Sequence record: MN508614.1 | From: Escherichia phage ES12 | DNA length: 64,000 bases | Reading direction: 5' to 3' (one strand) | Notes under the pieces: model-generated | Seen by the model: the letters and a program-made list of their open reading frames with translations, nothing else | Database searches by the model: none | What the model was told of the DNA's origin: nothing | In this document: one piece after another, positions 1 through 61,885 of the stretch | Layout of the letters: each line of letters begins with the position of its first letter | Numbering within the stretch: position 1 is the first letter of the stretch | Program-made: the position numbers and the translations under genes

Positions 1-2
1 AA

Positions 3-620
3 GTGGAAGCGCCAATATTCGTCGATCATGGTTATGTTGGACCAGATAGCTATTATCCAATTATTAAAGGAAGAAGTGTAATCACCAATCAAGGGTTTGT
101 AACTGCCGTCGATCTTGGTATTCGTCGTGTCAATAACAATTGGGGACAAGCAATTATTCGTGTTGGATCTGCGGAGGCATCGCCAGCGGCTGGACACCCT
201 AACGCGATATTTGAATTTCATTACGACGGTACTTTCTATTCTCCTGGTAATGGTAACTTTAACGATGTGTATATTCGTTCCGATGGTCGTCTTAAGATTA
301 ATAAAAAAGAGCTAGAAAACGGAGCACTTGAAAAAGTATGCCGACTGAAAGTTTATATTTACGATAAGGTTAAGTCTATTAAAGACCGTAGTGTTATTAA
401 ACGCGAAGTTGGTATTATTGCTCAGGACCTTGAAAAGGAATTACCGGAAGCTGTGTCTAAAGTTGAAGTTGATGGTTCTGATGTTCTGACAATTTCTAAC
501 TCCGCTGTAAATGCTCTTTTAATTAAGGCTATCCAAGAAATGAGCGAAGAAATTAAAGAATTAAAAACGCCTTTCTTCACTAAAATTGCTCGCAAAATTA
601 GTAATTATTTTAAATTCTAA
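3..620 (+). CDS. 37: Long tail fibre distal subunit gp37, C-terminal part (5' end lies outside the window)
   Basis: ORF runs in from the window edge, directly upstream of gp38 and holin t; C-terminal region resembles a tail-fibre intramolecular-chaperone module ([16 protein letters not shown]...[11 protein letters not shown]). Confidence 0.8.
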
Positions 621-624
621 CAAC

Positions 625-641
625 AAGGGGCTTTGCCCCTT
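625..641 (+). other. Intercistronic stem-loop between genes 37 and 38
   Basis: Inverted repeat AAGGGGC/GCCCCTT with TTT loop, immediately 5' of GGAG Shine-Dalgarno and the gene 38 ATG. Confidence 0.3.
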
Positions 642-652
642 TGGAGAAAATT

Positions 653-1453
653 ATGGCAGTAGTTGGTGTTCCTGGTTGGATTGGAAGTTCATCCGTAAAT
701 GAAACAGGACAACGATGGATGAGTCAAGCGGCTGGTCAATTAAGATTGGGTATTCCTTGCTGGATGAGTCAATTTGCAGGTCGCTCAAGAGAAATTATTC
801 ACACGCTTGGAGCAGACCATAACTTCAATGGTCAATGGTTCCGAGATAGATGTTTTGAGGCAGGTAGTGCACCTATAGTGTTTAATATCACAGGAAATTT
901 GGTATCATATTCTAGAGATGTTCCTTTATTCTTCATGTATGGAGATACACCAAATGAATATGTTCAGTTGAATATTAGCGGTGGAGCTCATATGTGGGGC
1001 AGAGGTGGACAAGGTGGATGGACTCATTCTGGTGGAGATGGTAATGGTCAACAGGGTGGACATTGTATTCAAAATGACATTGGTGGTCGGTTAAGAATTA
1101 ATAATGGTGGAGTAATTTGTGGCGGAGGAGGCGGTGGCGGCGGTATCGCTTATCGTCCTCACTCTGGTGCAAACTGGCAAGATATTGGTGGCGGTGGAGG
1201 AAGACCGTTTGGCCCAGGAGGTGGCGGTGGTTATTCAGGAGGTGCTGCTTCTTATGATGGCCCAGGAGGTGGTTATAATTATGGTAATGCTCACTCTGGT
1301 CAAGGTGGCGATGCTGGAGGAAATGGACAAAATGCCTGGCATGATGGTGGTAAAGTTCTAAAAGTTGGCGCTGGCGGGGCGGCAGGTTATGCTGTAATAG
1401 GGTCTGCTCCAACATGGCAAAATGTTGGAATAATATATGGTCCAAGAGTATAA
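653..1453 (+). CDS. 38: Tail-fibre adhesin gp38, T2/T6 type with glycine-rich motifs
   Basis: N-terminus [13 protein letters not shown]...[14 protein letters not shown] then several poly-Gly blocks separated by variable segments; ATG at 653 with GGAG SD (track ORF starts at upstream TTG 641). Confidence 0.85.
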
Positions 1454-1484
1454 TTTTGAATAAATACCCTTAAAAGGAGGGTCT

Positions 1485-5205: not shown

Positions 5206-5249
5206 TTTTTGTATCTCCGGGTTGTTTGTTTCAGTTCATTTATTTGATA

Positions 5250-5300
5250 GTTGTATAGTACCACAGTATGCTTTGGTTGTAAACCGTTTTGTGAAAAAAT
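5250..5300 (-). promoter_or_regulatory. Early sigma70 promoter cassette (GTTTAC -35, extended -10) with AT-rich UP element
   Basis: Minus-strand reading: AAAAATTTTTTCACAAAACGGTTTAC-(18 nt)-TGgTACTAT; near-identical copy at 61800-61850. Confidence 0.5.
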
Positions 5301-5307
5301 TTTTGAA

Positions 5308-5338
5308 ATAAAAAAGGGAGAGCCTCGGCTCTCCCTAA
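5308..5338 (-). terminator. Rho-independent terminator after the gene 52 unit
   Basis: GGGAGAGCC-tcgg-GGCTCTCCC hairpin followed by a U-run on the minus-strand transcript. Confidence 0.55.
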
Positions 5339-7118: not shown

Positions 7119-7199
7119 TCACTGGCGTCCGAAGACGCCTTTAGTTTTAAGATTATTACGATAGAACTGCATCACGTGTTCGTTGTGGAAATTACTCAT
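7119..7199 (-). CDS. stp: Stp peptide (26 aa), activator of the host PrrC anticodon nuclease
   Basis: Own translation gives [26 protein letters not shown], identical to the remembered T4 Stp; its ATG overlaps the ndd stop (TAATG). Confidence 0.85.
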
Positions 7200-8872: not shown

Positions 8873-8894
8873 TTTCTGTTCCTCCGTAGTTGAT

Positions 8895-8945
8895 AGTTGT
8901 ATAGTACCACGGTCCTTGTGATATGTAAACTGTTTTATGAAAATT
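8895..8945 (-). promoter_or_regulatory. Early promoter cassette
   Basis: Minus-strand GTTTAC-(18)-TGgTACTAT, AT-rich upstream, GGAGG leader. Confidence 0.45.
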
Positions 8946-8947
8946 TT

Positions 8948-9505
8948 TTAAATGGAAAGATACCATCCGCTGTAGTTGCTTTTTCTTACAACTTTACGAA
9001 GGTCTTCTCTGTCACCGATGAACTTCGGAGTGTACTGGATGACACCTGGATGAATTTCTTTAGTGTTGAATATAATTATACAGTCGGCGACTTGATAATT
9101 TAGAATGGGCCCTAGATTTATTCCAGAACCATATGGATACTCTCCGCTGCATCCTGTTGTTACAGAAATCCAACGTGAGTCAGTTTGATGTGTCTTAACT
9201 TCTACGCGAAGCCCACAGTATTTTGGATGTGCTAAAACATCCCATGCATATGTGTACGGATCATCGACATCTTCTTGGCCTTTATTGACATATCCGCTTA
9301 GCCAATCTGCCACAAAAAACTCTGCGTACACAGCGATACGGCATCTTTCGATAACTTCTGCCTTATCCTGATTTGGGTTTTGTTTTAAAGAGTATCTTGC
9401 AGTATCAGCAATTTTGACCTTCATTTCACTAGTCAAGTCACTGTTCGATAGGGTAAATGACGGAATCTGAAATAGTCTCTGCAAACCCGGATTCGTTTTC
9501 TGCAT
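8948..9505 (-). CDS. denB: DenB, endonuclease IV (cytosine-DNA specific)
   Basis: 185 aa, matching T4 DenB length and position next to rIIB. Confidence 0.9.
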   Translation of the reverse strand: MQKTNPGLQRLFQIPSFTLSNSDLTSEMKVKIADTARYSLKQNPNQDKAEVIERCRIAVYAEFFVADWLSGYVNKGQEDVDDPYTYAWDVLAHPKYCGLRVEVKTHQTDSRWISVTTGCSGEYPYGSGINLGPILNYQVADCIIIFNTKEIHPGVIQYTPKFIGDREDLRKVVRKSNYSGWYLSI

Positions 9506-9567
9506 TTAAACTTTCCTTTTATGTCTGAATCACTGGTATTCATATAATAAATCATAATTTCTCTTAA

Positions 9568-9592
9568 AACAAAAGGGCCGAAGCCCTTATTT
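9568..9592 (-). terminator. C(UUCG)G hairpin terminator
   Basis: Minus-strand RNA reads AAGGGC-UUCG-GCCCUU followed by UUGUUUU. Confidence 0.5.
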
Positions 9593-9786
9593 TATTTGAA
9601 TTGTGCAATTCTTTTCTCTAGACATTCAGCATAAGATTTCATTGAGATGAACTGTGAAAGTAGCAGTTCTTGCTCAACTGCACTAACTGTTAGAAACTTT
9701 GCGCTTTCTAAAAATTTGCTCAGTGCATTAATTTTGAGCATTAATTGATCGTATTCTTCTTTTACTCGTGCTTGATAACCTAACAT
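9592..9786 (-). CDS. Hypothetical protein, 64 aa (denB.1 position)
   Basis: Helical small protein flanked by two UUCG hairpins. Confidence 0.55.
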   Translation of the reverse strand: MLGYQARVKEEYDQLMLKINALSKFLESAKFLTVSAVEQELLLSQFISMKSYAECLEKRIAQFK

Positions 9787-9814
9787 AATTTTCCTTAGTT
9801 AAGGGCCGAAGCCC

Positions 9815-10753
9815 TTATTTAAATTGTTCAGTAACGTCTTCAACTACTTCGTATTGGCAGGTACGCATTTTAGCATCGTTGTAATCAATCGGAATTGATA
9901 CTACATCGCGAGGATGAACCTTAACTTTTACAACTCGGCTGGTTGAACTGCCAAAGTGACGAATATAAGATTTAGAACACACATGCAGACCACGAGAACA
10001 AGTTTGTGTATCATCGTCATTCACACGAGTACGTGGCATTTTAACTACTTTACCCGGACTGTTATCAAAGGTGTTTGAGTGACAGTCAAAGTAATTGCTG
10101 CGAACTACTTTCCAAGCATAGAAGTAGCCATCTTCTGTAATTTCAATATCATTTGCTACCAAGAAATCAAAGAGTCGAGATACCGCTTTTTGGCTTGGGT
10201 TTTCCAGCAGATTTTCCAAGAACGGAAAATAAAATTCAAAGTTTTCACCTTTTTCCATCGAGTCGAGAATACGATCAACCAAACCAGATCGCAATTCAAT
10301 ATTTTGATAGAACAAGCTTCCACCTTCAATTCGAACATCACCGGAAATATATTTTTCAACAGCGCGACGAACATTAATTTTTTGTGCCGCTTCTTCCAAC
10401 TTATCCGCTACAAGCAGATTAAGAATTTCCTGGAAGTTTGAATGAGTATTAGGAGTTGCGTTATAAGTTACACCATCAACAGTAATTGAAATGAATTTTT
10501 TAGATGCATTCCAAATAATGTCAGATTTAGCAACTGGAGCAATAACTGCATCGCTATTAACTTTAACTGTAATATCACCACTAATAGTAACTTTAGGGCG
10601 TTTAGCTTCTTCAGCATTTTTCAAAACACGACGGATTGTGTCAACCGATACATCCTTCCAATAAGCTAATTCCTGCTGAGTGTAATTACCACTTGAATAC
10701 AGTTTAACAATTTCAGCTTGTTCGTTTTTGGTCAGGCATTTAATATTGTACAT
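9815..10753 (-). CDS. rIIB: rIIB protein
   Basis: 312 aa, length and position match T4 rIIB. Confidence 0.97.
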   Translation of the reverse strand: MYNIKCLTKNEQAEIVKLYSSGNYTQQELAYWKDVSVDTIRRVLKNAEEAKRPKVTISGDITVKVNSDAVIAPVAKSDIIWNASKKFISITVDGVTYNATPNTHSNFQEILNLLVADKLEEAAQKINVRRAVEKYISGDVRIEGGSLFYQNIELRSGLVDRILDSMEKGENFEFYFPFLENLLENPSQKAVSRLFDFLVANDIEITEDGYFYAWKVVRSNYFDCHSNTFDNSPGKVVKMPRTRVNDDDTQTCSRGLHVCSKSYIRHFGSSTSRVVKVKVHPRDVVSIPIDYNDAKMRTCQYEVVEDVTEQFK

Positions 10754-13179: not shown

Positions 13180-13212
13180 TAATTATACCACATCCTTGTG
13201 GTAAAGTAAACT
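13180..13212 (-). promoter_or_regulatory. Early sigma70 promoter for the rIIA.1-rIIA-rIIB unit
   Basis: Minus-strand GTTTAC-(18 nt)-TGgTATAAT with a perfect TATAAT -10; a near-identical copy sits at 57390-57426. Confidence 0.55.
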
Positions 13213-15031
13213 ACTGGCTCATCCATTCTTTACGAAGGTCAGCATTATCTCCCATGAGCATTTCAAAAAGCTCTTTCCAATTCTCAGGAAGTTTAACAAC
13301 ATCATATACTGGGTTTTGAATCATCTCACGATATTCAGATTTTTCCAAAGAGCCAAGTCCCTTAATATAACGGATGCTATGTTTAGGTAGAGCATCTTTA
13401 GCACTCTCATATTCAGCGACTGTATAAAACCATTCTTGTTTTTTACCGACCTGAGCGATGATTACAGGAGTTTTGACGAAGCGAATTCTTCCTTGTTCAA
13501 ACAGTTCTGGCCAATTACTAAAAAATCCGAGCAGAGAAGGATAAATGCTTCCTAGACCATCATGGTCAGCATCAGTCATAATAGCGATATTATGATAATT
13601 CAAGTTTTCAGCTTTTTCACCGAGAACTAATCCAGTGATTGCGCAAATATCAAACAGTTCTTTGTTTTTAAGCATGTCAGCATATGACATACCCCAACTG
13701 TTGAGAACTTTACCACGTAATGGATAACCACCGTGAAGTTCTTTATCACGAACATCAATAAGATATCCGATAGCCGAATCACCCTCAGTCAAGAAAAGAG
13801 TAGTATCAGCATCTTTACCACAAAGATTCGCTTTAATATGTTTATGAACCTTAGCTTTAGAAGCCTTTTTAGCTGCTTTAGTTTCTGCTGCTTTTTCTGC
13901 CGCTAATTTACGAGCCAAAGCAGCTTCAATAATCGGCATTAGAATTGCTTCATTATTTAGAATAGCACGTGAAATCTTTTTAGCATCAAGTTGAATATGA
14001 CTACGGATTTCGCCAAATGGAGAAGTCAAACGCTCTTTAGTTTGAGAATCAAATCGCATGTTTTTCATATCACGGACAAACATAACGATAGTCAAACATT
14101 CTTTAACGCGTGCTTTAGTCACATCAATTTTGAACTTACGTTTGATTTGTGGAATAAGGTCTTCACAAATATCATCCATAACACAGTCAATGTGATGGCC
14201 ACCATTCTTAGTGTGAATGTTATTCACATAAGTTAATTGACGAAAACCATCCGGTGAACGACCAACCGCAATAGAGCAATTTTCTTGTTCTTGAACAATA
14301 GCATGCTCATCATATTGGCGTGCATATTTCTTAAAATTGCCCTGAACCTTTTTACCATTAAAGGTAAATTGAATATCAGGATAAACTACTGCAAGTGTCT
14401 GGAGACGATCTAGTGTAATGTCAAGATAAACTTGGGACAGCTCATTAGTTTCAAATGACATAAAATCAGGAATGAAAGTAACACGAGTTCCTTTCCATTT
14501 TCCAGGAATAGTTTCCCATGATTTATTTTCCATGCCATTTGAACAACGAACTACAATATTATTTTGACCATCACCAGTTTCACCAACAAACATCACAGAA
14601 AAAATGTTTGTCAAACTAGAACCAACACCATTCATACCGCCAGTGACACGTTCTTTATCATCGCCAAAGTTACCACCTGCTTTTGGAATAGTCCATGCAG
14701 CAACAGGACCAGGAATTTCTTCACCGGTAGGTGTTTTAACCATCGCCTGCGGAATACCACGACCGTTATCTTCAACTGTTACTTGATTGTTTTTAATAGT
14801 AACATTAATTTTATTTGCGAATTTAAACTTAGTACGAATACCTTCATCTACTGAGTTATCGATAATTTCATCAATAAGCTTAACAAGACCAGGTACATAC
14901 TGAACACTTTCCCATTTACCAAACAGAAAGCGCTCATGCATTTCATTAGCAGAAGAGCCAATATACATGCCGCTACGCTTTTTGATATGTTCAATATCGC
15001 TCAGAATTTTAATTTCATTCTTAATCATCAC
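13211..15031 (-). CDS. 39: DNA topoisomerase II large subunit, unsplit gene 39 (covers T4 gp39 plus gp60)
   Basis: 606 aa continuous ORF: N-terminal GHKL ATPase and C-terminal Toprim region ending ...LMGDNADLRKEWMSQ; no intervening ORF or bypass gap. Confidence 0.95.
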   Translation of the reverse strand: MMIKNEIKILSDIEHIKKRSGMYIGSSANEMHERFLFGKWESVQYVPGLVKLIDEIIDNSVDEGIRTKFKFANKINVTIKNNQVTVEDNGRGIPQAMVKTPTGEEIPGPVAAWTIPKAGGNFGDDKERVTGGMNGVGSSLTNIFSVMFVGETGDGQNNIVVRCSNGMENKSWETIPGKWKGTRVTFIPDFMSFETNELSQVYLDITLDRLQTLAVVYPDIQFTFNGKKVQGNFKKYARQYDEHAIVQEQENCSIAVGRSPDGFRQLTYVNNIHTKNGGHHIDCVMDDICEDLIPQIKRKFKIDVTKARVKECLTIVMFVRDMKNMRFDSQTKERLTSPFGEIRSHIQLDAKKISRAILNNEAILMPIIEAALARKLAAEKAAETKAAKKASKAKVHKHIKANLCGKDADTTLFLTEGDSAIGYLIDVRDKELHGGYPLRGKVLNSWGMSYADMLKNKELFDICAITGLVLGEKAENLNYHNIAIMTDADHDGLGSIYPSLLGFFSNWPELFEQGRIRFVKTPVIIAQVGKKQEWFYTVAEYESAKDALPKHSIRYIKGLGSLEKSEYREMIQNPVYDVVKLPENWKELFEMLMGDNADLRKEWMSQ

Positions 15032-15044
15032 TTATCCTCGTTTG

Positions 15045-15100
15045 GTTTCGGGAATATTATACTCCGGTAATCATAAAGCTAAAGGCCCGAAGGCCTTTTA
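15045..15100 (-). promoter_or_regulatory. MotA-box middle promoter with adjacent UUCG hairpin, upstream of gene 39
   Basis: Minus-strand AAGGCC-UUCG-GGCCUU hairpin then AGCTTTA-(12)-TATAAT. Confidence 0.4.
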
Positions 15101-16569: not shown

Positions 16570-16640
16570 GTATCAGTAGTTGATATTGATATAGTACCAT
16601 AATCAACTACTGATGTATATAGTTTTATGAAAAAATTTTA
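16570..16640 (-). promoter_or_regulatory. Degenerate early-promoter/leader cassette upstream of the 75-aa ORF
   Basis: Contains the conserved TGgTACTAT element and AT-rich upstream region but no clear GTTTAC -35. Confidence 0.3.
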
Positions 16641-16644
16641 AACT

Positions 16645-17136
16645 TTATGCATAGCGAGCTTTGCTGTAGTGTTTAATCCAGCTTTCAGGAATGACTTTGT
16701 ATGTTCCTAAAAATACAACGTTGTACAACTTAACGCCATCTTCTACCCATTGATCAGTAATGTATGCACACATAGCGCGAGTACGGCGAGGAAGGGGTTG
16801 TCCACCTTCGGTAAATTCAAACTCATAAGGAGCAACGAACTTAATAGCTTGACCGAGTTTCCACTTAAAGTCTACACCTACATGCGAAGTATCAATCGTT
16901 TCAATTCCTTTAGCGGGAACAGCTTTCAAAAACGCAGGCTCAAGAAATTTCCATCGAACATAACCAAACTGAGGTTTAGACATTCCATCTTTAGGAATGA
17001 TACGCACTTTTACTTCAGAATCTTCATCTTTAACACCGTGTTTAAGCTGAATGCTTACGACTTCAACCAATTTTCCTGCTGCTTTAGAACGGGATTTATC
17101 AGATACACGAGCCAATTCACCAATATTAATAATCAT
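16645..17136 (-). CDS. motB: MotB-like protein, 163 aa
   Basis: Length and position match T4 motB; C-terminal domain is paralogous to the next ORF (ITDQWVEDGVKLYNVV). Confidence 0.55.
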   Translation of the reverse strand: MIINIGELARVSDKSRSKAAGKLVEVVSIQLKHGVKDEDSEVKVRIIPKDGMSKPQFGYVRWKFLEPAFLKAVPAKGIETIDTSHVGVDFKWKLGQAIKFVAPYEFEFTEGGQPLPRRTRAMCAYITDQWVEDGVKLYNVVFLGTYKVIPESWIKHYSKARYA

Positions 17137-25569: not shown

Positions 25570-25637
25570 AGTGTTCTCCTCTATAAGATATTTTTATTAT
25601 ACCACACTCATTTTGACATGTAAACCATAAAATGAAA

Positions 25638-25660
25638 AAAGGAATCCCGAAGGATTCCTT
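25638..25660 (-). terminator. Rho-independent terminator downstream of soc
   Basis: Minus-strand RNA AGGAAUCC-UUCG-GGAUUCCU followed by UUUUUUCAUUUU. Confidence 0.5.
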
Positions 25661-30985: not shown

Positions 30986-31342
30986 TTAAAAGAATTTAAA
31001 CTTTTTCTTTGACCTTTTATTAAATGCATCTTGTAGTTGCATTGTAATACATTTTTCTACATGAGGAGCTAACTCAGCTTTTCTTTCTTGGTCAAGAACA
31101 GCAAAGTCCATTACGACTTTTCCATCAACCCAATCTAATTTTGTCACATACACAATGTGTGTAGAACCATCTTCTAGTTTAATGACAATCTCCTGGATAA
31201 CATTTTCCATAGCGGATTTAATTATCTTAAGAGACTTATTAAAAAGACGTTCTTTTCTTTCTTCTTCCCCCTCCGAAGAGGGGGATTCATCGATAATTTC
31301 TAAATCTAAATCATCTTTACTCATTAAATTCTTCCATATCAC
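30986..31342 (-). CDS. 40: Hypothetical protein, 118 aa (gene 40 position)
   Basis: Sits between uvsX and 41 where T4 gene 40 lies; assignment by position only. Confidence 0.5.
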   Translation of the reverse strand: MIWKNLMSKDDLDLEIIDESPSSEGEEERKERLFNKSLKIIKSAMENVIQEIVIKLEDGSTHIVYVTKLDWVDGKVVMDFAVLDQERKAELAPHVEKCITMQLQDAFNKRSKKKFKFF

Positions 31343-35195: not shown

Positions 35196-35227
35196 TTCAT
35201 TCTCCAAATCCGTATCAGTAGTTGATA

Positions 35228-35290
35228 GTTGTATAGTACCATAGAAGAACAGGGATGTAAACCGTTTTGTGAAAAAATTTTTAATGAATT
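35228..35290 (-). promoter_or_regulatory. Early promoter cassette
   Basis: Minus-strand GTTTAC-(18)-TGgTACTAT, AT-rich UP, conserved leader. Confidence 0.5.
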
Positions 35291-35348
35291 CTAGAGGTCC
35301 AGAATCATCTATTTTTCCTAAGTATAGATTTATATTACTTGTATGAAA

Positions 35349-35368
35349 AAGGGACCCGGAGGTCCCTA
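35349..35368 (-). terminator. Rho-independent terminator downstream of gene 43
   Basis: Minus-strand RNA GGGACC-UCCG-GGUCCC followed by UUUUUCAU. Confidence 0.55.
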
Positions 35369-38076: not shown

Positions 38077-38118
38077 AGATATTCCTTAGTTTATAGCCCG
38101 AGTTATTAGGCTCTTGAT
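38077..38118 (-). promoter_or_regulatory. Gene 43 translational operator (autoregulatory RNA hairpin plus SD)
   Basis: Minus-strand RNA CAAGAGCC-UAAUAACU-CGGGCUAUAAACUAAGGAAUAUCUAUG matches the remembered T4 gp43 operator hairpin. Confidence 0.6.
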
Positions 38119-38127
38119 ATATTATAC

Positions 38128-38150
38128 TCCAAATAAGGGGCCGAAGCCCC
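38128..38150 (-). other. C(UUCG)G hairpin upstream of gene 43
   Basis: Minus-strand RNA AAGGGGC-UUCG-GCCCCUU followed by AUUUGGAGUAUAAU. Confidence 0.4.
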
Positions 38151-38154
38151 TTGC

Positions 38155-38376
38155 TTAAATTAGTACTATTTGCCGGGTGAAAATTATCATTCCATCTGCA
38201 TTAATTGACTTAACGACTGCAGTAAAATGTTTTTGTTCTGGGTGAACTAATTTTTGAAATTCTACCTGAAATTTTAATTGGAGGTTTTCTGGTAAATCAA
38301 AAAGTGTTTCTGTTGCAGAAAGATTATATTTTTCTTTAAGAGACGCCATGTATTCTTGTGGAGTTATAGCAGTCAT
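38155..38376 (-). CDS. Hypothetical protein, 73 aa, between regA and gene 43
   Basis: Start at the ATG 2 nt after the regA stop (MTAITPQEYMASLKEKY...); the track ORF extends 14 codons into regA. Confidence 0.45.
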   Translation of the reverse strand: MTAITPQEYMASLKEKYNLSATETLFDLPENLQLKFQVEFQKLVHPEQKHFTAVVKSINADGMIIFTRQIVLI

Positions 38377-40299: not shown

Positions 40300-40322
40300 A
40301 TTATAAAGGGCCGAAGCCCTTT
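40300..40322 (-). other. C(UUCG)G intercistronic hairpin between genes 45 and 44
   Basis: Minus-strand RNA AAGGGC-UUCG-GCCCUU. Confidence 0.4.
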
Positions 40323-40323
40323 A

Positions 40324-41010
40324 TTAAAAATCGTGAGTAGAATCAGCTTCAAGAGCTACTACATAATTCGCATGTTCACCTTCAAATTTAGCAGCACCTT
40401 GTTTACCTTTTGCCCAGAGCAGAAGTTTATAATTTCCTGGTTGCATTTTCATATTTGCCATATTGATAATGAAATTAAATGTATTTTCACCATCATAATC
40501 ACCAAGAGTCAAAGAATATTTAACACGGGTCAGAGCAGAATCTTCTACTTTATTAAAACCGTTAATTACGATTTTACCTTCTTTTACCGTGATAGCAATT
40601 GTATCAATTTGCAGACCACGAGATACGCGCAACAGTTGTTGAAGGTCTTCAGCTTTAATTTCGGTAACAACAGATGCTACCGGGAATGGAATTGGTTTAT
40701 TAGGAGCAACTACTGTACTCGGATCGGCTGCTGGCCAAAAAATTGTTGAGCGGGCATCAGCAATTTTAATATTTCCATCTTCTGACTGGGAAATTTCTGC
40801 ATCATCATTAACTAGAGACAGAATACCGAGAAAACCGTTCAAATCGTAAATTGCTACATCAAAATCAATAACGTCAGAAATATTTGCTTCCGCATAAGTT
40901 GTACCATTAACCGCGCGAGTCATAATAAATTGACCGGATTTAAGCATAATGCCAGAGTTAATAGTAGCGAAATTTTTCAAAATATTCAGTGTATCTTTAG
41001 ACAGTTTCAT
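40324..41010 (-). CDS. 45: Sliding clamp gp45
   Basis: 228 aa; matches T4 gp45 length and N-terminus MKLSKDTLNILK. Confidence 0.97.
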   Translation of the reverse strand: MKLSKDTLNILKNFATINSGIMLKSGQFIMTRAVNGTTYAEANISDVIDFDVAIYDLNGFLGILSLVNDDAEISQSEDGNIKIADARSTIFWPAADPSTVVAPNKPIPFPVASVVTEIKAEDLQQLLRVSRGLQIDTIAITVKEGKIVINGFNKVEDSALTRVKYSLTLGDYDGENTFNFIINMANMKMQPGNYKLLLWAKGKQGAAKFEGEHANYVVALEADSTHDF

Positions 41011-44984: not shown

Positions 44985-45028
44985 ATATCATTATATCAAA
45001 CTCCGTATAAAGCTAAAGGGCCGAAGCC
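44985..45028 (-). promoter_or_regulatory. UUCG hairpin plus MotA-box middle promoter upstream of gene 47
   Basis: Minus-strand RNA AAGGGC-UUCG-GCCCUU then AGCTTTA-(12)-TATAAT. Confidence 0.4.
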
Positions 45029-45030
45029 CT

Positions 45031-46233
45031 TTATTTTGTAATAATGTCAAACTGTTCTTTAAAGCAGAAGCTTGAATCTTGATGCTGATACAAAAATTCA
45101 TAAGCTTTTTCGCGTTCACGGTCATAAAGAGTTCGGTCAGATGACAGTTCTTTAATACGTTCAAATGTTGATTCCATGTCATTTTCATCAAACCAAATGA
45201 TACCGCTATCATGTGAGGTCAAAGGAGTATTATCAACACGGAATTTTAAATTTTCGCCAGTAGATTTCCAAAATACCGGAATTGTTCCACATGCACCAAG
45301 CTCGAGATGAGTATATTCTAAAGAACGTTGTAGATATTTTTTGTCCAACTTACTCAGCTGATAACCAAATCCGGATTTACTCATGCGTTCAAGCATTTCG
45401 CTATTTACATAACGGTCAAGAATTTGCGTTGGCAAATTAGGAGCAATTTTAATTTGGTCTACTTGATGAAGACGATAATACTCGTATGGAATTCCTTTTT
45501 CTTTAATAGGAATGAACGCTGGAGAACGTTCCAGACCTTCCATAATAGTACTTAGTCCTGCAGGTTTAAGATGTTTTTCGTGAAAATCAAACATCTGATA
45601 AAAACCTTTCCATGTAGTCGTACGACCAATCCAACGGTTGACATTCATGTTAATTTCAGAAACATCTTTCCAGTAGGTTGACCGAACCTTCGCAATATCC
45701 ATAGGAGGCTGAAAGTTATATACTGTCGGTGCTTCTTCAATATCATCAAACAGAGAAACAGTTTCTGGATACCATTCTTTCATCAGAACTTTATTAAAAT
45801 CACCATTATCAGAATGGCTAAAAATAACATCAGCTCGACGAACAGTTTCTTCTAATCCCAAATTTCGACGCAAAGAAAGAGAAGAATGGTCATGCTGATA
45901 AACTACAACACGAACCGAAGGTTTAATGTTATCAATAATTTTTTTATAGTTATTAATAGTGTCTTCTTCAACCGAAGTAGCAGGAACTGAATTGATAATT
46001 AGAATATCACAATCATTTACCAGCTTAAGTGTTTTATCATATTCTTTTGCCAATAAAACCGGAATTGAAAATGATTTATAATCATGCGCGCAATTACGAG
46101 TAAATGATTTATCTTTAGCATAAACCAAAGTCACTTCATGACCATTTTTAATAAACCAATCACGTTGCTCGAGTGAGAATTTTGTTACACCACAACCTTC
46201 AAGACCTCGAGCCATAAAAATACATACTTTCAT
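45031..46233 (-). CDS. a-gt: DNA alpha-glucosyltransferase
   Basis: 400 aa, ...CIFMARGLEGCGVTKFSLEQRDWFIKNGHEVTLVYAKDKSF... matches remembered T4 AGT. Confidence 0.95.
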   Translation of the reverse strand: MKVCIFMARGLEGCGVTKFSLEQRDWFIKNGHEVTLVYAKDKSFTRNCAHDYKSFSIPVLLAKEYDKTLKLVNDCDILIINSVPATSVEEDTINNYKKIIDNIKPSVRVVVYQHDHSSLSLRRNLGLEETVRRADVIFSHSDNGDFNKVLMKEWYPETVSLFDDIEEAPTVYNFQPPMDIAKVRSTYWKDVSEINMNVNRWIGRTTTWKGFYQMFDFHEKHLKPAGLSTIMEGLERSPAFIPIKEKGIPYEYYRLHQVDQIKIAPNLPTQILDRYVNSEMLERMSKSGFGYQLSKLDKKYLQRSLEYTHLELGACGTIPVFWKSTGENLKFRVDNTPLTSHDSGIIWFDENDMESTFERIKELSSDRTLYDREREKAYEFLYQHQDSSFCFKEQFDIITK

Positions 46234-46244
46234 TTAATATCCTC

Positions 46245-46296
46245 TTTGTTTTGGTTTATTTTACCAAAAATTTATAAAGCAATATAGGAGCCGAAG
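46245..46296 (-). promoter_or_regulatory. Terminator hairpin plus MotA-box middle promoter for a-gt
   Basis: Minus-strand RNA UAGGAGC-UUCG-GCUCCUA, then TTGCTTTA-(12)-TAAAAT and SD AAGAGGA. Confidence 0.45.
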
Positions 46297-46476
46297 CTCC
46301 TATCCGCATAATACGCCATACAGAGGCTCGTTAGAACTTTTAAATTTTATGCGCTTATATTTTATAGTTCCTTCTGCTTTAGCTTTATCATGAGACTCTT
46401 TAAAGCGTCTCATCATTTCCTCTTTAGAGGAACGAATTTTATTATAATCTATTTCAGAAGTCTGGGTGTTCATCTT

Positions 46477-48651: not shown

Positions 48652-48670
48652 AAAAAGGGCCGAAGCCCTT
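48652..48670 (-). terminator. C(UUCG)G hairpin terminator
   Basis: Minus-strand RNA AAGGGC-UUCG-GCCCUU followed by UUUUGG. Confidence 0.45.
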
Positions 48671-49477: not shown

Positions 49478-49504
49478 ATCAATTCCTCAAAGGTAATTCA
49501 TATG

Positions 49505-49540
49505 TTAATAATACCACGGTTTGAACTTGTTGTAAACAAC
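49505..49540 (-). promoter_or_regulatory. Early promoter
   Basis: Minus-strand GTTTAC-(18)-TGgTATTAT. Confidence 0.45.
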
Positions 49541-49616
49541 TTTGTGAAAAATATTTTAGGGAATGACAAGAAGGGAACGATAGCTTAGAATGGTAATATA
49601 CAGAATGTAAGAAAGA

Positions 49617-57389: not shown

Positions 57390-57426
57390 AAGAACATTAT
57401 ACCACATCCTTGTGGTAAAGTAAACT
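57390..57426 (-). promoter_or_regulatory. Early sigma70 promoter between paralogues C and B
   Basis: Minus-strand GTTTAC-(18)-TGgTATAAT, near-identical to the copy at 13180-13212. Confidence 0.5.
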
Positions 57427-58444
57427 AGTTCAGTGCATTTAATGCATTGTTCAGTTTAGAACGTTGCTTCGTGAGATTTTTGACTTTTTCTTGTGCTTTT
57501 TCTAGCATCTTTTCAGCTTCTAACACTTCATTGGTCGCTTTAACGAGTTCATCATCTACTGCCTTAAGGGACTTCTCAATCGCATCCGCGTGCCATTTTT
57601 CAACAGGTTTAAGACTCGGATTTTCAATAGGAAGAAAATTCACTTTATTGAATTTCCATGCATCTTTATTACCTGAACTATACATCCAAAATTTAGGATC
57701 ATTTGACGAGTAATTAGATAAATTTAAGGTATCTTGTACTTCCTGCTTTTTCTCTTGTGTAACTTCGTCCTTTCTCAAAAAATCGTATTTAAATGAAACG
57801 ATCATATCAAGTTCATATGTTGTTGTGTCTAATTTAAATCGTTCGAAATGCTGTGAAATCTTAGACTGAACTGCAGCAACAACATCCATATACTTAAATG
57901 CTTCTGTCAGCTGTGATTTAAGGCATTCACAAATTGAAAGAGAATTTTTTGTATTAGGTTTAAAGCTAATTCGTGCAGTTCTATTATTTTCTTTTAATGG
58001 TCTTACTTCCATCTGAAGAGTATAACCATCAAATTTCAGATTCTTTAAGTTAATATCAGAGCCTTTTAATCGACTAGCCGTCGACAAAATTTGCTTTAAT
58101 TGTTTACGGAATAGAGCAATAAATCTCCACTCAAGACGATAATGATTTGGATTAAAAAATCCAGATGATAAATCGACCTTACTCTGACCAACACCTTGAA
58201 CAAACAGAGGATTTTTATAATCAATAGTTTTACAGAAATCGGTGAGCTGCTCACGAGCAGTCATTTGTGTAATATACCCCGCTTTACTAAAATGACGTAA
58301 CCATTCACTGCTATTCATATATTTAAAGTGAATATCACGATTAACTTTATCAGGGTCTAAATTATTTTCACACAAAAATGTCATAACATCACGAGTATAG
58401 CTGGCATTACGAACCATATCTTCAATTTGAGAACGAGTTTTCAT
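57425..58444 (-). CDS. Paralogue C of the four-member tandem family, 339 aa
   Basis: Central FIALFRKQLKQILSTASRLK helix; tail ...ATNEVLEAEKMLEKAQEKVKNLTKQRSKLNNALNALN. Confidence 0.6.
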   Translation of the reverse strand: MKTRSQIEDMVRNASYTRDVMTFLCENNLDPDKVNRDIHFKYMNSSEWLRHFSKAGYITQMTAREQLTDFCKTIDYKNPLFVQGVGQSKVDLSSGFFNPNHYRLEWRFIALFRKQLKQILSTASRLKGSDINLKNLKFDGYTLQMEVRPLKENNRTARISFKPNTKNSLSICECLKSQLTEAFKYMDVVAAVQSKISQHFERFKLDTTTYELDMIVSFKYDFLRKDEVTQEKKQEVQDTLNLSNYSSNDPKFWMYSSGNKDAWKFNKVNFLPIENPSLKPVEKWHADAIEKSLKAVDDELVKATNEVLEAEKMLEKAQEKVKNLTKQRSKLNNALNALN

Positions 58445-61770: not shown

Positions 61771-61799
61771 TTTATTCTCCAAATCCGTATCAGTTGATA

Positions 61800-61850
61800 G
61801 TTGTATAGTACCACAGTATGCTTTGGTTGTAAACCGTTTTGTGAAAAAAA
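61800..61850 (-). promoter_or_regulatory. Early promoter cassette
   Basis: Minus-strand AAAAATTTTTTTCACAAAACGGTTTAC-(18)-TGgTACTAT; about 60 nt near-identical to 5250-5300. Confidence 0.5.
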
Positions 61851-61866
61851 TTTTTGAAATAAAAAA

Positions 61867-61885
61867 GGGAGCCCGAAGGCTCCCT
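61867..61885 (-). terminator. Rho-independent terminator after the NTase-fold gene
   Basis: Minus-strand RNA GGGAGCC-UUCG-GGCUCCC followed by UUUUUUAUUU. Confidence 0.55.

Follow-up and report, generated by a model that had tools for sequence, protein, structure and literature searches.

Recurrent C(UUCG)G hairpins in the minus-strand transcripts of Escherichia phage ES12, a T4-type phage

C(UUCG)G hairpins in bacteriophage T4 mRNA were reportedly described by Tuerk et al. in 1988. Hairpins of this kind are well known in T4 at the ends of early and middle genes, and some of them act as terminators. The history of the UUCG tetraloop traces its first description, in 1988, to T4 mRNA hairpins, and the unusual stability of the loop is likewise a literature property (PMC4371310). 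A second described element of T4-type phages is the promoter-early stem-loop (PeSL) cassette (Arbiol et al. 2010, PMC2839356; Comeau et al. 2014, PMC4122927), defined as an intergenic stem-loop beside a strong early promoter of sigma-70-like type that has an A/T-rich region upstream. PeSL stem-loops of related phages terminated transcription on par with rrnB T1 in a reporter assay. During decay of T4 mRNA, RegB cleavage of intergenic GGAG sequences creates ends at which 3' exonucleases of the host enter.

The 64,000-nucleotide stretch of Escherichia phage ES12 DNA analyzed here (MN508614.1; hereafter the window) is 100% identical to Escherichia phage ES26 and approximately 97-97.5% identical to T4, and is, judged by its sequence, that of a T4-type phage. 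The C(UUCG)G hairpins that recur in it are the classical pre-replicative mRNA stem-loops of the T-even phages, and are real and already known elements. They are short, GC-cored and exceptionally stable, and form in sense RNA at the 3' limit of cistrons or transcription units. A scan of T4 identified orthologues for 11 of the 12 window hairpins; the twelfth, at 9800, is also present in T4, but its stem is one G short in the T4 reference. The old T4 reference (NC_000866) misses a base in five stems that are full-length in ES12. The initial annotation did not recognize this classic T4 feature, and middle promoters, early promoters and coding sequence were absent from the contexts it described.

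Both strands of the window were scanned for an exact C(UUCG)G loop on a perfect stem of at least 6 bp. Twelve hairpins with stems of 6-9 bp were identified, each of them on the transcribed minus strand; the plus strand of the whole window has none. The count in 300 dinucleotide-preserving shuffles averaged 0.05 with a maximum of 2, and the hexamer CTTCGG occurred 39 times compared to 12.6 +/- 3.4 expected. Of 291 tetraloop hairpins, 12 were C(UUCG)G, and the second most frequent class had n = 5. In each of the 12, a C-G pair closes the loop on a continuous perfect stem, and every site folded as it had been read, with the hairpin as both the minimum free energy (MFE) and the centroid fold (MFE -10.7 to -19.0 kcal/mol; z-scores -1.6 to -4.5). 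Loop swaps in ViennaRNA (Turner-2004) gave UUCG no advantage, GCAA being 0.4 kcal/mol more stable; this calculation was uninformative, and the extra stability of the loop is therefore taken from the literature. A search of the whole window against Rfam returned no family match at the gathering threshold.

The initial annotation had proposed ten or more such hairpins on the minus-strand transcript. The observation was confirmed, and their nature as recurrent RNA-level elements of that transcript is strongly supported by the 12:0 ratio of sense to antisense copies, by a ratio of 47:0 in relatives and by covariation of the stems. The nine sites it listed are true C(UUCG)G hairpins, as is 25638-25660, which it had taken for a variant, but the hairpins at 7124 and 31266 were overlooked, and three positions were off by 3-10 nt (38128 should read 38135, 45008 should read 45014 and 46284 replaces 46274). 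The proposed GGGC-UUCG-GCCC type is literally present as a GGGC...GCCC core in only 6 of the 12; the remaining stems differ. A supposed UUCG variant at 5308-5338 is actually GGGAGAGC-CGAG-GCUCUCCC, and its CGAG loop rules this element, at 5315, out of the UNCG class. The variant at 35349-35368, GGGACC-UCCG-GGUCCC, is not UUCG either but is a UNCG relative, and UNCG-class loops are thus found as UUCG at the 12 sites and as UCCG at 35350.

The usual hairpin starts a few nucleotides from a stop codon, with 9 of the 12 beginning -4 to +7 nt relative to one; two, in stp (7124) and gene 40 (31266), lie within coding sequence. The U-tract expected of an intrinsic terminator (at least 5 U in the 8 nt immediately after a GC-rich hairpin) was found at 9573, 25639, 61866, 5315 and 35350, was not found at 7124, 9800, 15081, 31266, 40303 and 45014, and was marginal at 38135 and 48655. 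A graded d-score (d'Aubenton-Carafa 1990), used as a heuristic, agreed with this simpler measure, being clearly negative at seven sites and marginally positive at 38135 and 48655. The 46284 hairpin has 5 T in 8 but a graded score of -19.6, and was not counted as a terminator because its T's belong to a MotA box and its score is negative. The scan also called plus-strand (antisense) terminators at 7124, 9573 and 9800; these calls arise because A-runs precede the hairpins on the sense strand, and were treated as a by-product of A-rich codons before stops.

The five U-tract elements, all on the minus strand, are predicted intrinsic terminators. The suggestion of the initial annotation that some hairpins are likely terminators fits their anatomy, and also the PeSL reporter tests in related phages. 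The denB.1 hairpin (9573-9588; AAGGGC-UUCG-GCCCUU) is terminator-like, starting 3 nt past the denB.1 stop and followed by UUGUUUU. The soc hairpin (25639-25660; AAGGAAUCC-UUCG-GGAUUCCUU) begins 7 nt past the soc stop, resembles an intrinsic terminator with its tail UUUUCAUUUU, and has an early promoter downstream (-35 at 25619-25625, -10 at 25596-25601). The nrdC.11 hairpin (61866-61885; AGGGAGCC-UUCG-GGCUCCCU) begins 1 nt past the nrdC.11 stop and is followed by UUUUUAUUU; it has strong intrinsic-terminator anatomy and is part of a PeSL-type cassette of terminator and early promoter. Directly downstream of it lies an early-promoter cassette (61794-61868, minus strand) with an UP-like A/T tract and a -35 element GTTTACA at 61828-61834. 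This cassette is 92% identical to that at 5244-5318, which follows the terminator between motA.1 and motA (5315-5336; AGGGAGAGC-CGAG-GCUCUCCCU, then UUUUUAUUU), an element with a non-UUCG loop. The gene 43 terminator (35350-35367; AGGGACC-UCCG-GGUCCCU, then UUUUCAU) lies 12 nt past the gene 43 stop with an early promoter approximately 55 nt downstream (35222-35296); T4 and the related locus L013 have a UCCA loop here instead of the UCCG of the window. Two UUCG hairpins and both variants stand directly upstream of early promoters, and it is these four (61866, 5315, 35350 and 25639, with -35 GTTTACA and a -10 element downstream, in the D1 repeat family) that match the PeSL definition; the other nine hairpins do not.

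The remaining hairpins are likewise on the minus strand. The stp/ac hairpin (7124-7139; GGCGUC-UUCG-GACGCC) is without a U-tract in the last codons of stp (7119-7199; ..GVFGRQ), is identical in T4 (165510-165525) and ends 3-5 nt upstream of the ac Shine-Dalgarno sequence. The rIIB hairpin (9800-9817; UAAGGGC-UUCG-GCCCUUA), also without a U-tract, contains the rIIB stop codon within its stem and ends 5 nt upstream of the denB.1 Shine-Dalgarno sequence. The hairpin between genes 45 and 44 (40303-40324; AUAAAGGGC-UUCG-GCCCUUUAU) overlaps the stop of gene 45 and lies 30 nt upstream of the gene 44 AUG. In the region of T4 55.3, a marginal terminator (48655-48670; AAGGGC-UUCG-GCCCUU) overlaps the stop of a 66-aa ORF, is followed by UUUGG and lies 38 nt upstream of the next AUG. 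Placement directly before a Shine-Dalgarno sequence, as described in the initial annotation, held for 7124, 9800 and 9573 (3-9 nt) and was looser at 40303 and 48655. The gene 40 hairpin (31266-31285; UCCCCCUC-UUCG-GAGGGGGA), without a U-tract, occupies codons 14-20 of gene 40 (SPSSEGE), 31 nt past the uvsX stop, and is conserved in loci L013-L018. The stp and gene 40 hairpins, being in coding sequence, are awkward for a pure cistron-end description; both nevertheless lie where an ORF ends or has just ended (stp itself and uvsX, respectively).

Four hairpins are located directly upstream of middle promoters known from experimental mapping in T4 (P39, P47, PmobB and P43), and three adjoin MotA-box middle promoters. 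The 39.1 hairpin (15081-15098; AAAGGCC-UUCG-GGCCUUU) overlaps the 39.1 stop and adjoins the MotA box of a P39-type promoter (15056-15083, minus strand), which consists of the MotA box TTTAGCTTTA at 15074-15083, a 12-nt spacer and TATAAT at 15056-15061; the mapped T4 start site of P39 is 5349. The a-gt hairpin (45014-45033; UAAAGGGC-UUCG-GCCCUUUA) contains the a-gt stop within its stem and overlaps the MotA box of a P47-type promoter on the minus strand (45008-45017; -10 at 44990-44995). The a-gt.2 hairpin (46284-46303; AUAGGAGC-UUCG-GCUCCUAU) overlaps the a-gt.2 stop, with the MotA box of a minus-strand PmobB-type promoter directly downstream (46275-46283; -10 at 46258-46263); the mobB gene itself is absent from the window beside it. 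The fourth, the regA-to-43 hairpin (38135-38152; AAGGGGC-UUCG-GCCCCUU), has a marginal U-tract and lies 2 nt past the stop of a 73-aa ORF that is an insertion after regA. Downstream come the -10 element of P43 (38121-38126), the operator hairpin of gp43 (38095-38113) and, 19 nt past the regA-to-43 hairpin, the mapped P43 start. The GCUUCG of the 38135 hairpin was considered as the P43 MotA box, and the idea was dropped because its spacing to TATAAT is 15 nt compared to the required 12 +/- 1. A related late-strand element on the plus strand (625-641; AAGGGGC-UUU-GCCCCUU, then a GGAG Shine-Dalgarno sequence) appears to occupy the position of the UUCG hairpin between T4 genes 37 and 38; it was placed by context because T4 does not align with the window there.

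Sixteen related loci contained 47 sense hairpins and no antisense hairpin. T4 has approximately 21 hairpins with a stem of at least 6 bp, 19 on the minus strand and two on the plus strand; the latter come after the plus-strand genes 23 and 37, and every T4 hairpin is on the locally transcribed strand. The 45-to-44 site has a hairpin in every relative examined, down to 53% gp45 identity. The stems there differ, yet 96% of the alignment cells pair, six of seven pairs changed on both sides and none of 500 shuffles reached the observed pairing score, in an alignment that was centered on hand-picked hairpins and so has pair counts biased toward structure. One pair runs from A-U in the window through G.U in L014 to G-C in L013. 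The soc hairpin (25639) shows a compensatory A-U to C-G change relative to T4, and at the regA-to-43 site the hairpin persists on four unrelated stems. The pairing of these hairpins is under selection. Loops in the relatives are mostly UUCG, with UACG, UCCG, UUUG, GAAA, CGUG and UUAC in some lineages, a variety that fits selection for a stable cap better than a specific protein-binding site. No U-tract was conserved at the 45-to-44 site in any lineage examined, the tails being GGGCCCAAUCG in L022, L023 and L028, GGCCUCACCUG in L027 and GUCCCUAAUUUG in L025.

Taken together, we consider it fairly probable that one structural module serves two functional classes, terminators and non-terminating barriers; the actual termination efficiencies and the exonuclease-barrier role are what we infer. 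The U-tract hairpins (9573, 25639, 61866, 5315 and 35350), several of them fused to a strong early promoter, would terminate host RNA polymerase. Those without a U-tract (7124, 9800, 15081, 31266, 40303, 45014 and 46284, with 38135 and 48655 marginal) would stop polymerase inefficiently and remain in read-through polycistronic RNA. RegB or RNase E would then cut the downstream leader or Shine-Dalgarno region, after which the hairpins would block the 3'-to-5' exonucleases RNase II, RNase R and PNPase at the end of the upstream cistron. They may also keep neighboring translation-initiation regions from mispairing, because, as we propose, they fold fast and locally. A role as stabilizers or processing barriers is plausible, given the biology of T4 RNA decay, and what was found here is what a stabilizer would present, namely a stable sense hairpin at the 3' end of a cistron with its pairing under selection. 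The reviews of T4 transcription and decay that were consulted assign no function to the non-terminator hairpins, and our literature search found no Term-seq or 3'-end study of T4.

A narrower proposal, which we regard as somewhat unlikely, is that the non-terminators are distinct, position-specific cistron-end caps, kept at the 45-to-44 and regA-to-43 junctions across several T4-like lineages. Several would be fused head-to-tail with MotA boxes as a middle-promoter counterpart of PeSL, and would uncouple the stability of the upstream cistron from inactivation of the downstream leader by RegB or RNase E. The junction positions are kept despite complete turnover of the stems and changes of the loop (mostly UUCG, with UNCG, GAAA and others).

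An unlikely alternative is a graded series in which every hairpin is an intrinsic terminator or attenuator; those whose U-tract is poor would terminate weakly and partially, thereby tuning how strongly the upstream gene is expressed relative to the downstream one (for example, gp45 > gp44/62), and would not be RNA stabilizers. Many sites combine an A-tract, a GC core and UUU(A)U in the layout of a weak bidirectional terminator, six of them (15081, 38135, 40303, 45014, 46284 and 48655) have 5-6 U in the 9 nt past the last G-C pair, and partial termination is possible at several non-terminators because 3-4 U directly follow the GC core (GCCCUUUAU and similar). The marginally positive scores of 38135 and 48655 point the same way, as does the PeSL authors' own term for their stem-loops, "terminator/attenuator". 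The clearly negative scores of seven sites and the 0-3 U past the GC core at 7124, 9800 and 31266 argue against it, and the 45-to-44 hairpin is present in every lineage while its U-rich tail is not kept.

It is quite improbable that the elements instead work chiefly as DNA, with the GGGC...GCCC inverted repeats acting as PeSL-like recombination joints or module boundaries, or as phage DNA-protein sites, and the RNA hairpin as a by-product. A DNA palindrome leaves the one-way asymmetric loop unexplained, which faces 12:0 here, 47:0 in the relatives and in the direction of the genes in T4, and because stem sequences differ between lineages a sequence-specific DNA-binding site is disfavored. Publications connect PeSL stem-loops with indels and the formation of mini-circles, and cite deletions in T4 that end at GGGC/GCCC motifs. 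Within the window, the insertion of the 73-aa ORF falls precisely between the stop of regA and the 38135 hairpin, mobB is missing beside 46284, denB.1 is flanked by near-identical hairpins, and the cassettes at 5244-5318 and 61794-61868 are near-repeats. Intergenic positions tolerate indels anyway, however, and the one indel checked near the flagged hairpins falls inside an ORF and not at the hairpin. This difference of approximately 215 bp from phage sutha, near 9573, is an internal deletion in the ORF downstream, and was rejected as a hairpin-mediated event.

Translational control, in which hairpins located at a stop codon or shortly ahead of the next Shine-Dalgarno sequence would modulate ribosome release, re-initiation or 30S standby binding on the downstream gene, or would bind a translational repressor, is very improbable. 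The 7124 and 9800 hairpins do end 3-5 nt before a Shine-Dalgarno sequence, several stems contain a stop codon, T4 uses RNA structure at other initiation regions and its gene 60 UUCG hairpin acts on the ribosome. However, no Shine-Dalgarno sequence or start codon is tied up in any of the hairpins, and the next AUG lies anywhere between 12 and more than 300 nt away. RegA sites are A/U-rich and lack structure, and UUCG loops are reported to bind no proteins (PMC4371310). Promoters also follow four of the hairpins, and transcripts from these lack the hairpin because the promoters lie downstream of it. Finally, an origin by chance or base composition, as palindromes in an AT-rich genome or as a coding by-product, has practically no probability left, since the two coding-sequence hairpins and the modest single-site z-scores (-1.6 to -4.5) are outweighed by 12 copies compared to 0.05 in shuffles, complete strand bias, intergenic placement adjoining stop codons and conservation with covariation, and the shuffle counts and covariation test refute it.

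Recovery of these hairpins is mostly a sanity check, in that a scan of raw sequence retrieved the elements behind the discovery of the UUCG tetraloop. For annotation of T4-type genomes, the hairpins reliably mark boundaries of cistrons and transcription units and cassettes of terminator and promoter. Those without a U-tract are conserved with covariation across lineages, the literature search found no experiment assigning them a function, and their candidate roles are decay barriers, weak attenuators or both.

Several known systems resemble parts of this set. The T4 gene 60 bypass hairpin (T4 2834-2857) shares the UUCG tetraloop motif and the genome family, but works on the ribosome within a coding gap; the ES12 window lacks it because gene 39 is an uninterrupted 605-aa ORF. 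Rho-independent terminators of E. coli and its phages resemble 9573, 25639, 61866, 5315 and 35350 in having a GC-rich hairpin with a U-tract right after the stop. They differ from seven UUCG hairpins that have no U-tract and two that have a marginal one, and from the 45-to-44 site, where the hairpin is conserved and the tail is not. PeSL cassettes match 61866, 5315, 35350 and 25639, in which a stem-loop terminator stands ahead of a strong early promoter of sigma-70 type whose upstream tract is A/T-rich, and the cassette is likewise intergenic and repeated in the window (D1 family). In contrast, most UUCG hairpins of the window have no joined early promoter; three adjoin MotA boxes and three precede a Shine-Dalgarno sequence only. 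REP elements (as in malE-malF) and terminator hairpins are intercistronic or 3' stabilizers of mRNA, and terminator hairpins block PNPase and RNase II. The window hairpins would resemble them in their proposed mode, with 3'-to-5' exonucleases stalling at a stable hairpin where the upstream cistron ends, but they have no sequence relationship to REP and are single short tetraloop hairpins. From the C(UUCG)G hairpins of T4 mRNA they differ in nothing essential, as both are the same element in the same phage group, a C-G-closed UUCG loop in an intercistronic position on the sense strand.

An exact scan of the whole window, in which CTTCGG was matched and the flanking stem then extended outward, identified 12 perfect C(UUCG)G hairpins (stem length 6-9 bp), exclusively on the minus strand. 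Stems of at least 6 bp were rare in 300 dinucleotide-preserving shuffles (mean 0.05 hairpins, maximum 2), and the bare CTTCGG hexamer occurred 39 times against 12.6 ± 3.4 expected. C(UUCG)G was the largest class of tetraloop hairpin (n = 12; runner-up, n = 5), and the 35 most stable perfect hairpins with any loop included 12 with UUCG and one with UCCG. These results confirmed the observation made in the initial annotation, whose list of ten true sites was essentially right, and at each site RNA folding returned the hairpin as both the MFE and the centroid structure. Three of the ten were misplaced by 3-10 nt, the hairpins at 7124-7139 and 31266-31285 were overlooked, and the two sites at 5315-5336 and 35350-35367, listed as variants, carry CGAG and UCCG loops rather than UUCG.

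BLAST to T4, read with the T4 annotation, shows the window to be an extended run of minus-strand early and middle genes; on the T4 reference it begins in the tail-fibre/holin region, passes rIIB and rIIA and reaches the nrdC/mobD region. The GC content is close to 35%, and the GC skew is steadily negative. The 3-kb stretch around hairpins 9573 and 9800 (named, like the others, by first window coordinate) contains rIIA, rIIB and denB, and matched Escherichia phage ES26 at 100% identity and T4 at approximately 97.5%.

Gene names were assigned to the 12 sites, all on the minus strand, by mapping to T4. At nine of them the hairpin started -4 to +7 nt relative to the upstream ORF's stop codon; at several sites this codon was incorporated in the stem. 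Hairpin 7124 lies within the final codons of stp, directly ahead of the ac Shine-Dalgarno sequence; 9800 separates rIIB from denB.1, 9573 separates denB.1 from denB, and 15081 separates 39.1 from 39. Hairpin 25639 is located 3' of soc, and 31266 is within gene 40, 31 nt past the uvsX stop. The others are 38135, between regA (with an inserted 73-aa ORF) and 43; 40303 (45 to 44); 45014 (a-gt to 47.1); 46284, 3' of a-gt.2; 48655, at the end of the 55.3 region; and 61866 (nrdC.11 to nrdC.10).

The C-terminal GVFGR(Q) residues of Stp (26 aa; 7119-7199, minus strand) are encoded by hairpin 7124, and for this reason its stem is constrained both as RNA and as protein. An ORF starting 17 nt past hairpin 9573 (about 9440-9555, minus strand) is a 40-aa remnant in the window; phage sutha (PV245934) encodes a 109-aa version, about 215 nt longer, and T4 aligns across the region, likewise without the segment of about 215 nt. 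Gene 39 (13211-15028, minus strand) is a single uninterrupted ORF of 605 aa, from which the T4 mobA/60.1/gene 60 insertion, including its UUCG translational-bypass hairpin, is missing (window 13546/13611 corresponds to T4 2793/3911). On the plus strand, the late-gene strand, AAGGGGC-UUU-GCCCCUU at 625-641, with a three-base loop, is followed by UGGAGAAAAUUAUG and appears to take the position of the T4 gene 37-to-38 UUCG hairpin; its tail-fibre flank (window 1-1460) had no match to T4.

Conservation was assessed in 16 loci with 10-kb flanks, obtained from one gp45 search and ranging from 100% to 53% gp45 identity. Since the stems are perfect palindromes, orientation can be read from the asymmetric loop only. 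The UUCG loop was on the sense strand at all 12 window sites, as was that of every T4 hairpin whose stem reached 6 bp or more, among them the two plus-strand ones that follow the plus-strand genes 23 and 37; the related loci contained 47 sense and no antisense hairpins. So consistent a sense orientation favours selection at the level of the transcript.

All full loci carried a stable hairpin at the 45-to-44 junction, shortly past the gene 45 stop, and this positional conservation is independent of hairpin selection. The stems varied (AUAAAGGGC, AAUGGGG, UGGAGGA, UGGGCC, AGGGAC and UGAGGCC), and the loops were mostly UUCG, the exceptions being UACG (two cases), UUUG and GAAA (one case each). 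Loop-centred alignment gave pairing in 96% of cells and both-side changes in six of seven pairs, counts that are biased toward structure because the aligned hairpins were hand-selected. The pairing score was reached by no shuffle, and the signal collapsed when the partner was slid. Among close relatives one pair passes stepwise through A-U, G.U and G-C, and the soc hairpin (25639) carries an A-U to C-G swap relative to T4. The regA-to-43 junction showed a like pattern: its four stems were unrelated, and the loops were UUCG, UCCG, GAAA, CGUG and UUAC. The gene 43 terminator (35350) was kept only inside the close T4 group. Outside the T4 group the tail past the 45-to-44 hairpin was not U-rich, and therefore termination cannot be the conserved function there.

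The initial annotation had interpreted some hairpins as likely terminators followed by U-runs and placed others directly before a Shine-Dalgarno sequence, a reading that was largely right yet incomplete. A U-tract follows 9573, 25639, 61866, 5315 and 35350, which scored as terminators by the terminator criterion and by a graded heuristic, and their predicted anatomy is that of standard intrinsic terminators; 38135 and 48655 were marginal, and seven sites were clearly negative. A stem-loop taken from the equivalent terminator/promoter cassettes in RB49/phi1 lowered the expression of a reporter to the same degree as rrnB T1. The terminator scan also called 7124-7139, 9573-9588 and 9800-9817 on the antisense (plus) strand, because sense-strand A-runs precede them, and these could in principle stop antisense transcription.

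A Shine-Dalgarno sequence lies 3-9 nt past hairpins 7124, 9800 and 9573; promoters follow other hairpins. The MotA box consensus is (a/t)(a/t)(a/t)TGCTTtA, 12 ± 1 bp from TAtaaT, and a consensus box lies directly against, or overlaps, each of hairpins 15081, 45014 and 46284. The experimentally mapped T4 middle-promoter starts P39 (5349), P47 (36576) and PmobB (38682) are 31-33 nt past the orthologous T4 hairpins, and that of P43 (29933) is 19 nt past its hairpin in T4. The gp43 translational-operator hairpin (38095-38113, minus strand; GAGCC-UAAUAACU-CGGGCU, with UAAC in the loop) lies just 3' of the P43 -10 element and hairpin 38135.

For the hairpins without U-tracts, the role we favour is that of a 3' exonuclease barrier and folding insulator. 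In T4-infected cells, intergenic initiation regions are cut by RegB at GGAG, and RNase E makes further cuts; the resulting 3' ends then serve as entry points for RNase II, RNase R and PNPase. Placed after a stop codon and ahead of the following Shine-Dalgarno sequence or promoter, a very stable hairpin would be well positioned to protect the upstream cistron, and GGAG-containing structured intergenic stem-loops with UUCG were reported to be RegB-resistant. The exonuclease-barrier step is what we infer; a literature search for 3'-end data on these T4 hairpins found none. The leading alternative is weak attenuation, as suggested by the 3-4 U that several hairpins retain past the GC core. As a secondary property, the hairpins may also be recombination joints at the DNA level: deletions have been linked in published work to stem-loops of this kind and to GGGC/GCCC motifs, an ORF insertion adjoins 38135, and the homing-endonuclease gene mobB is missing beside 46284 (junction near 46221-46249). 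Strict sense orientation speaks against a primary function in DNA, and the only indel examined near 9573 and 9800 was not located at a hairpin. The 73-aa ORF (38155-38376, minus strand), which separates the regA stop codon from hairpin 38135, has no counterpart there in T4 and is common to one related locus (L018); three others (L022, L023 and L028) carry different ORFs at that place.

The T4 reference NC_000866 lacks exactly one G or C in each of five GC-rich stems (window 9573-9588, 9800-9817, 35350-35367, 40303-40324 and 48655-48670), whereas at both sites checked GGGCUUCGGCCC is complete in OZ035787.1, a modern T4 assembly. The missing bases look like gel-compression errors of the old reference and may also influence the end annotated for gene 55.3, whose reading frame in T4 continues through the hairpin.

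The UUCG tetraloop was originally characterised in these same hairpins. Tuerk et al. (1988) is reportedly the primary paper on these T4 hairpins. In an Rfam search of the whole window at the gathering threshold, no family covered them. Early promoters lie downstream of 25639, 61866, 5315 and 35350 and are members of a cassette family of about 75 nt with six copies (5244-5318, 8890-8964, 16580-16654, 35222-35296, 49497-49571 and 61794-61868). The copies at 5244-5318 and 61794-61868 are 92% identical, with differing terminator hairpins (CGAG vs UUCG loop). The terminator/early-promoter cassettes of the window correspond to the promoter-early stem-loops (PeSLs) of T4-type phages (Arbiol et al. 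2010, PMC2839356; Comeau et al. 2014, PMC4122927). A 32-nt repeat, 100% identical at 13182-13213 and 57396-57427, contains an early-type promoter (GTTTAC ... TGTGGTATAAT); its -35/-10 spacer holds a 7-bp hairpin, UACCACA-AGGA-UGUGGUA, and this arrangement matches one PeSL layout in the literature.
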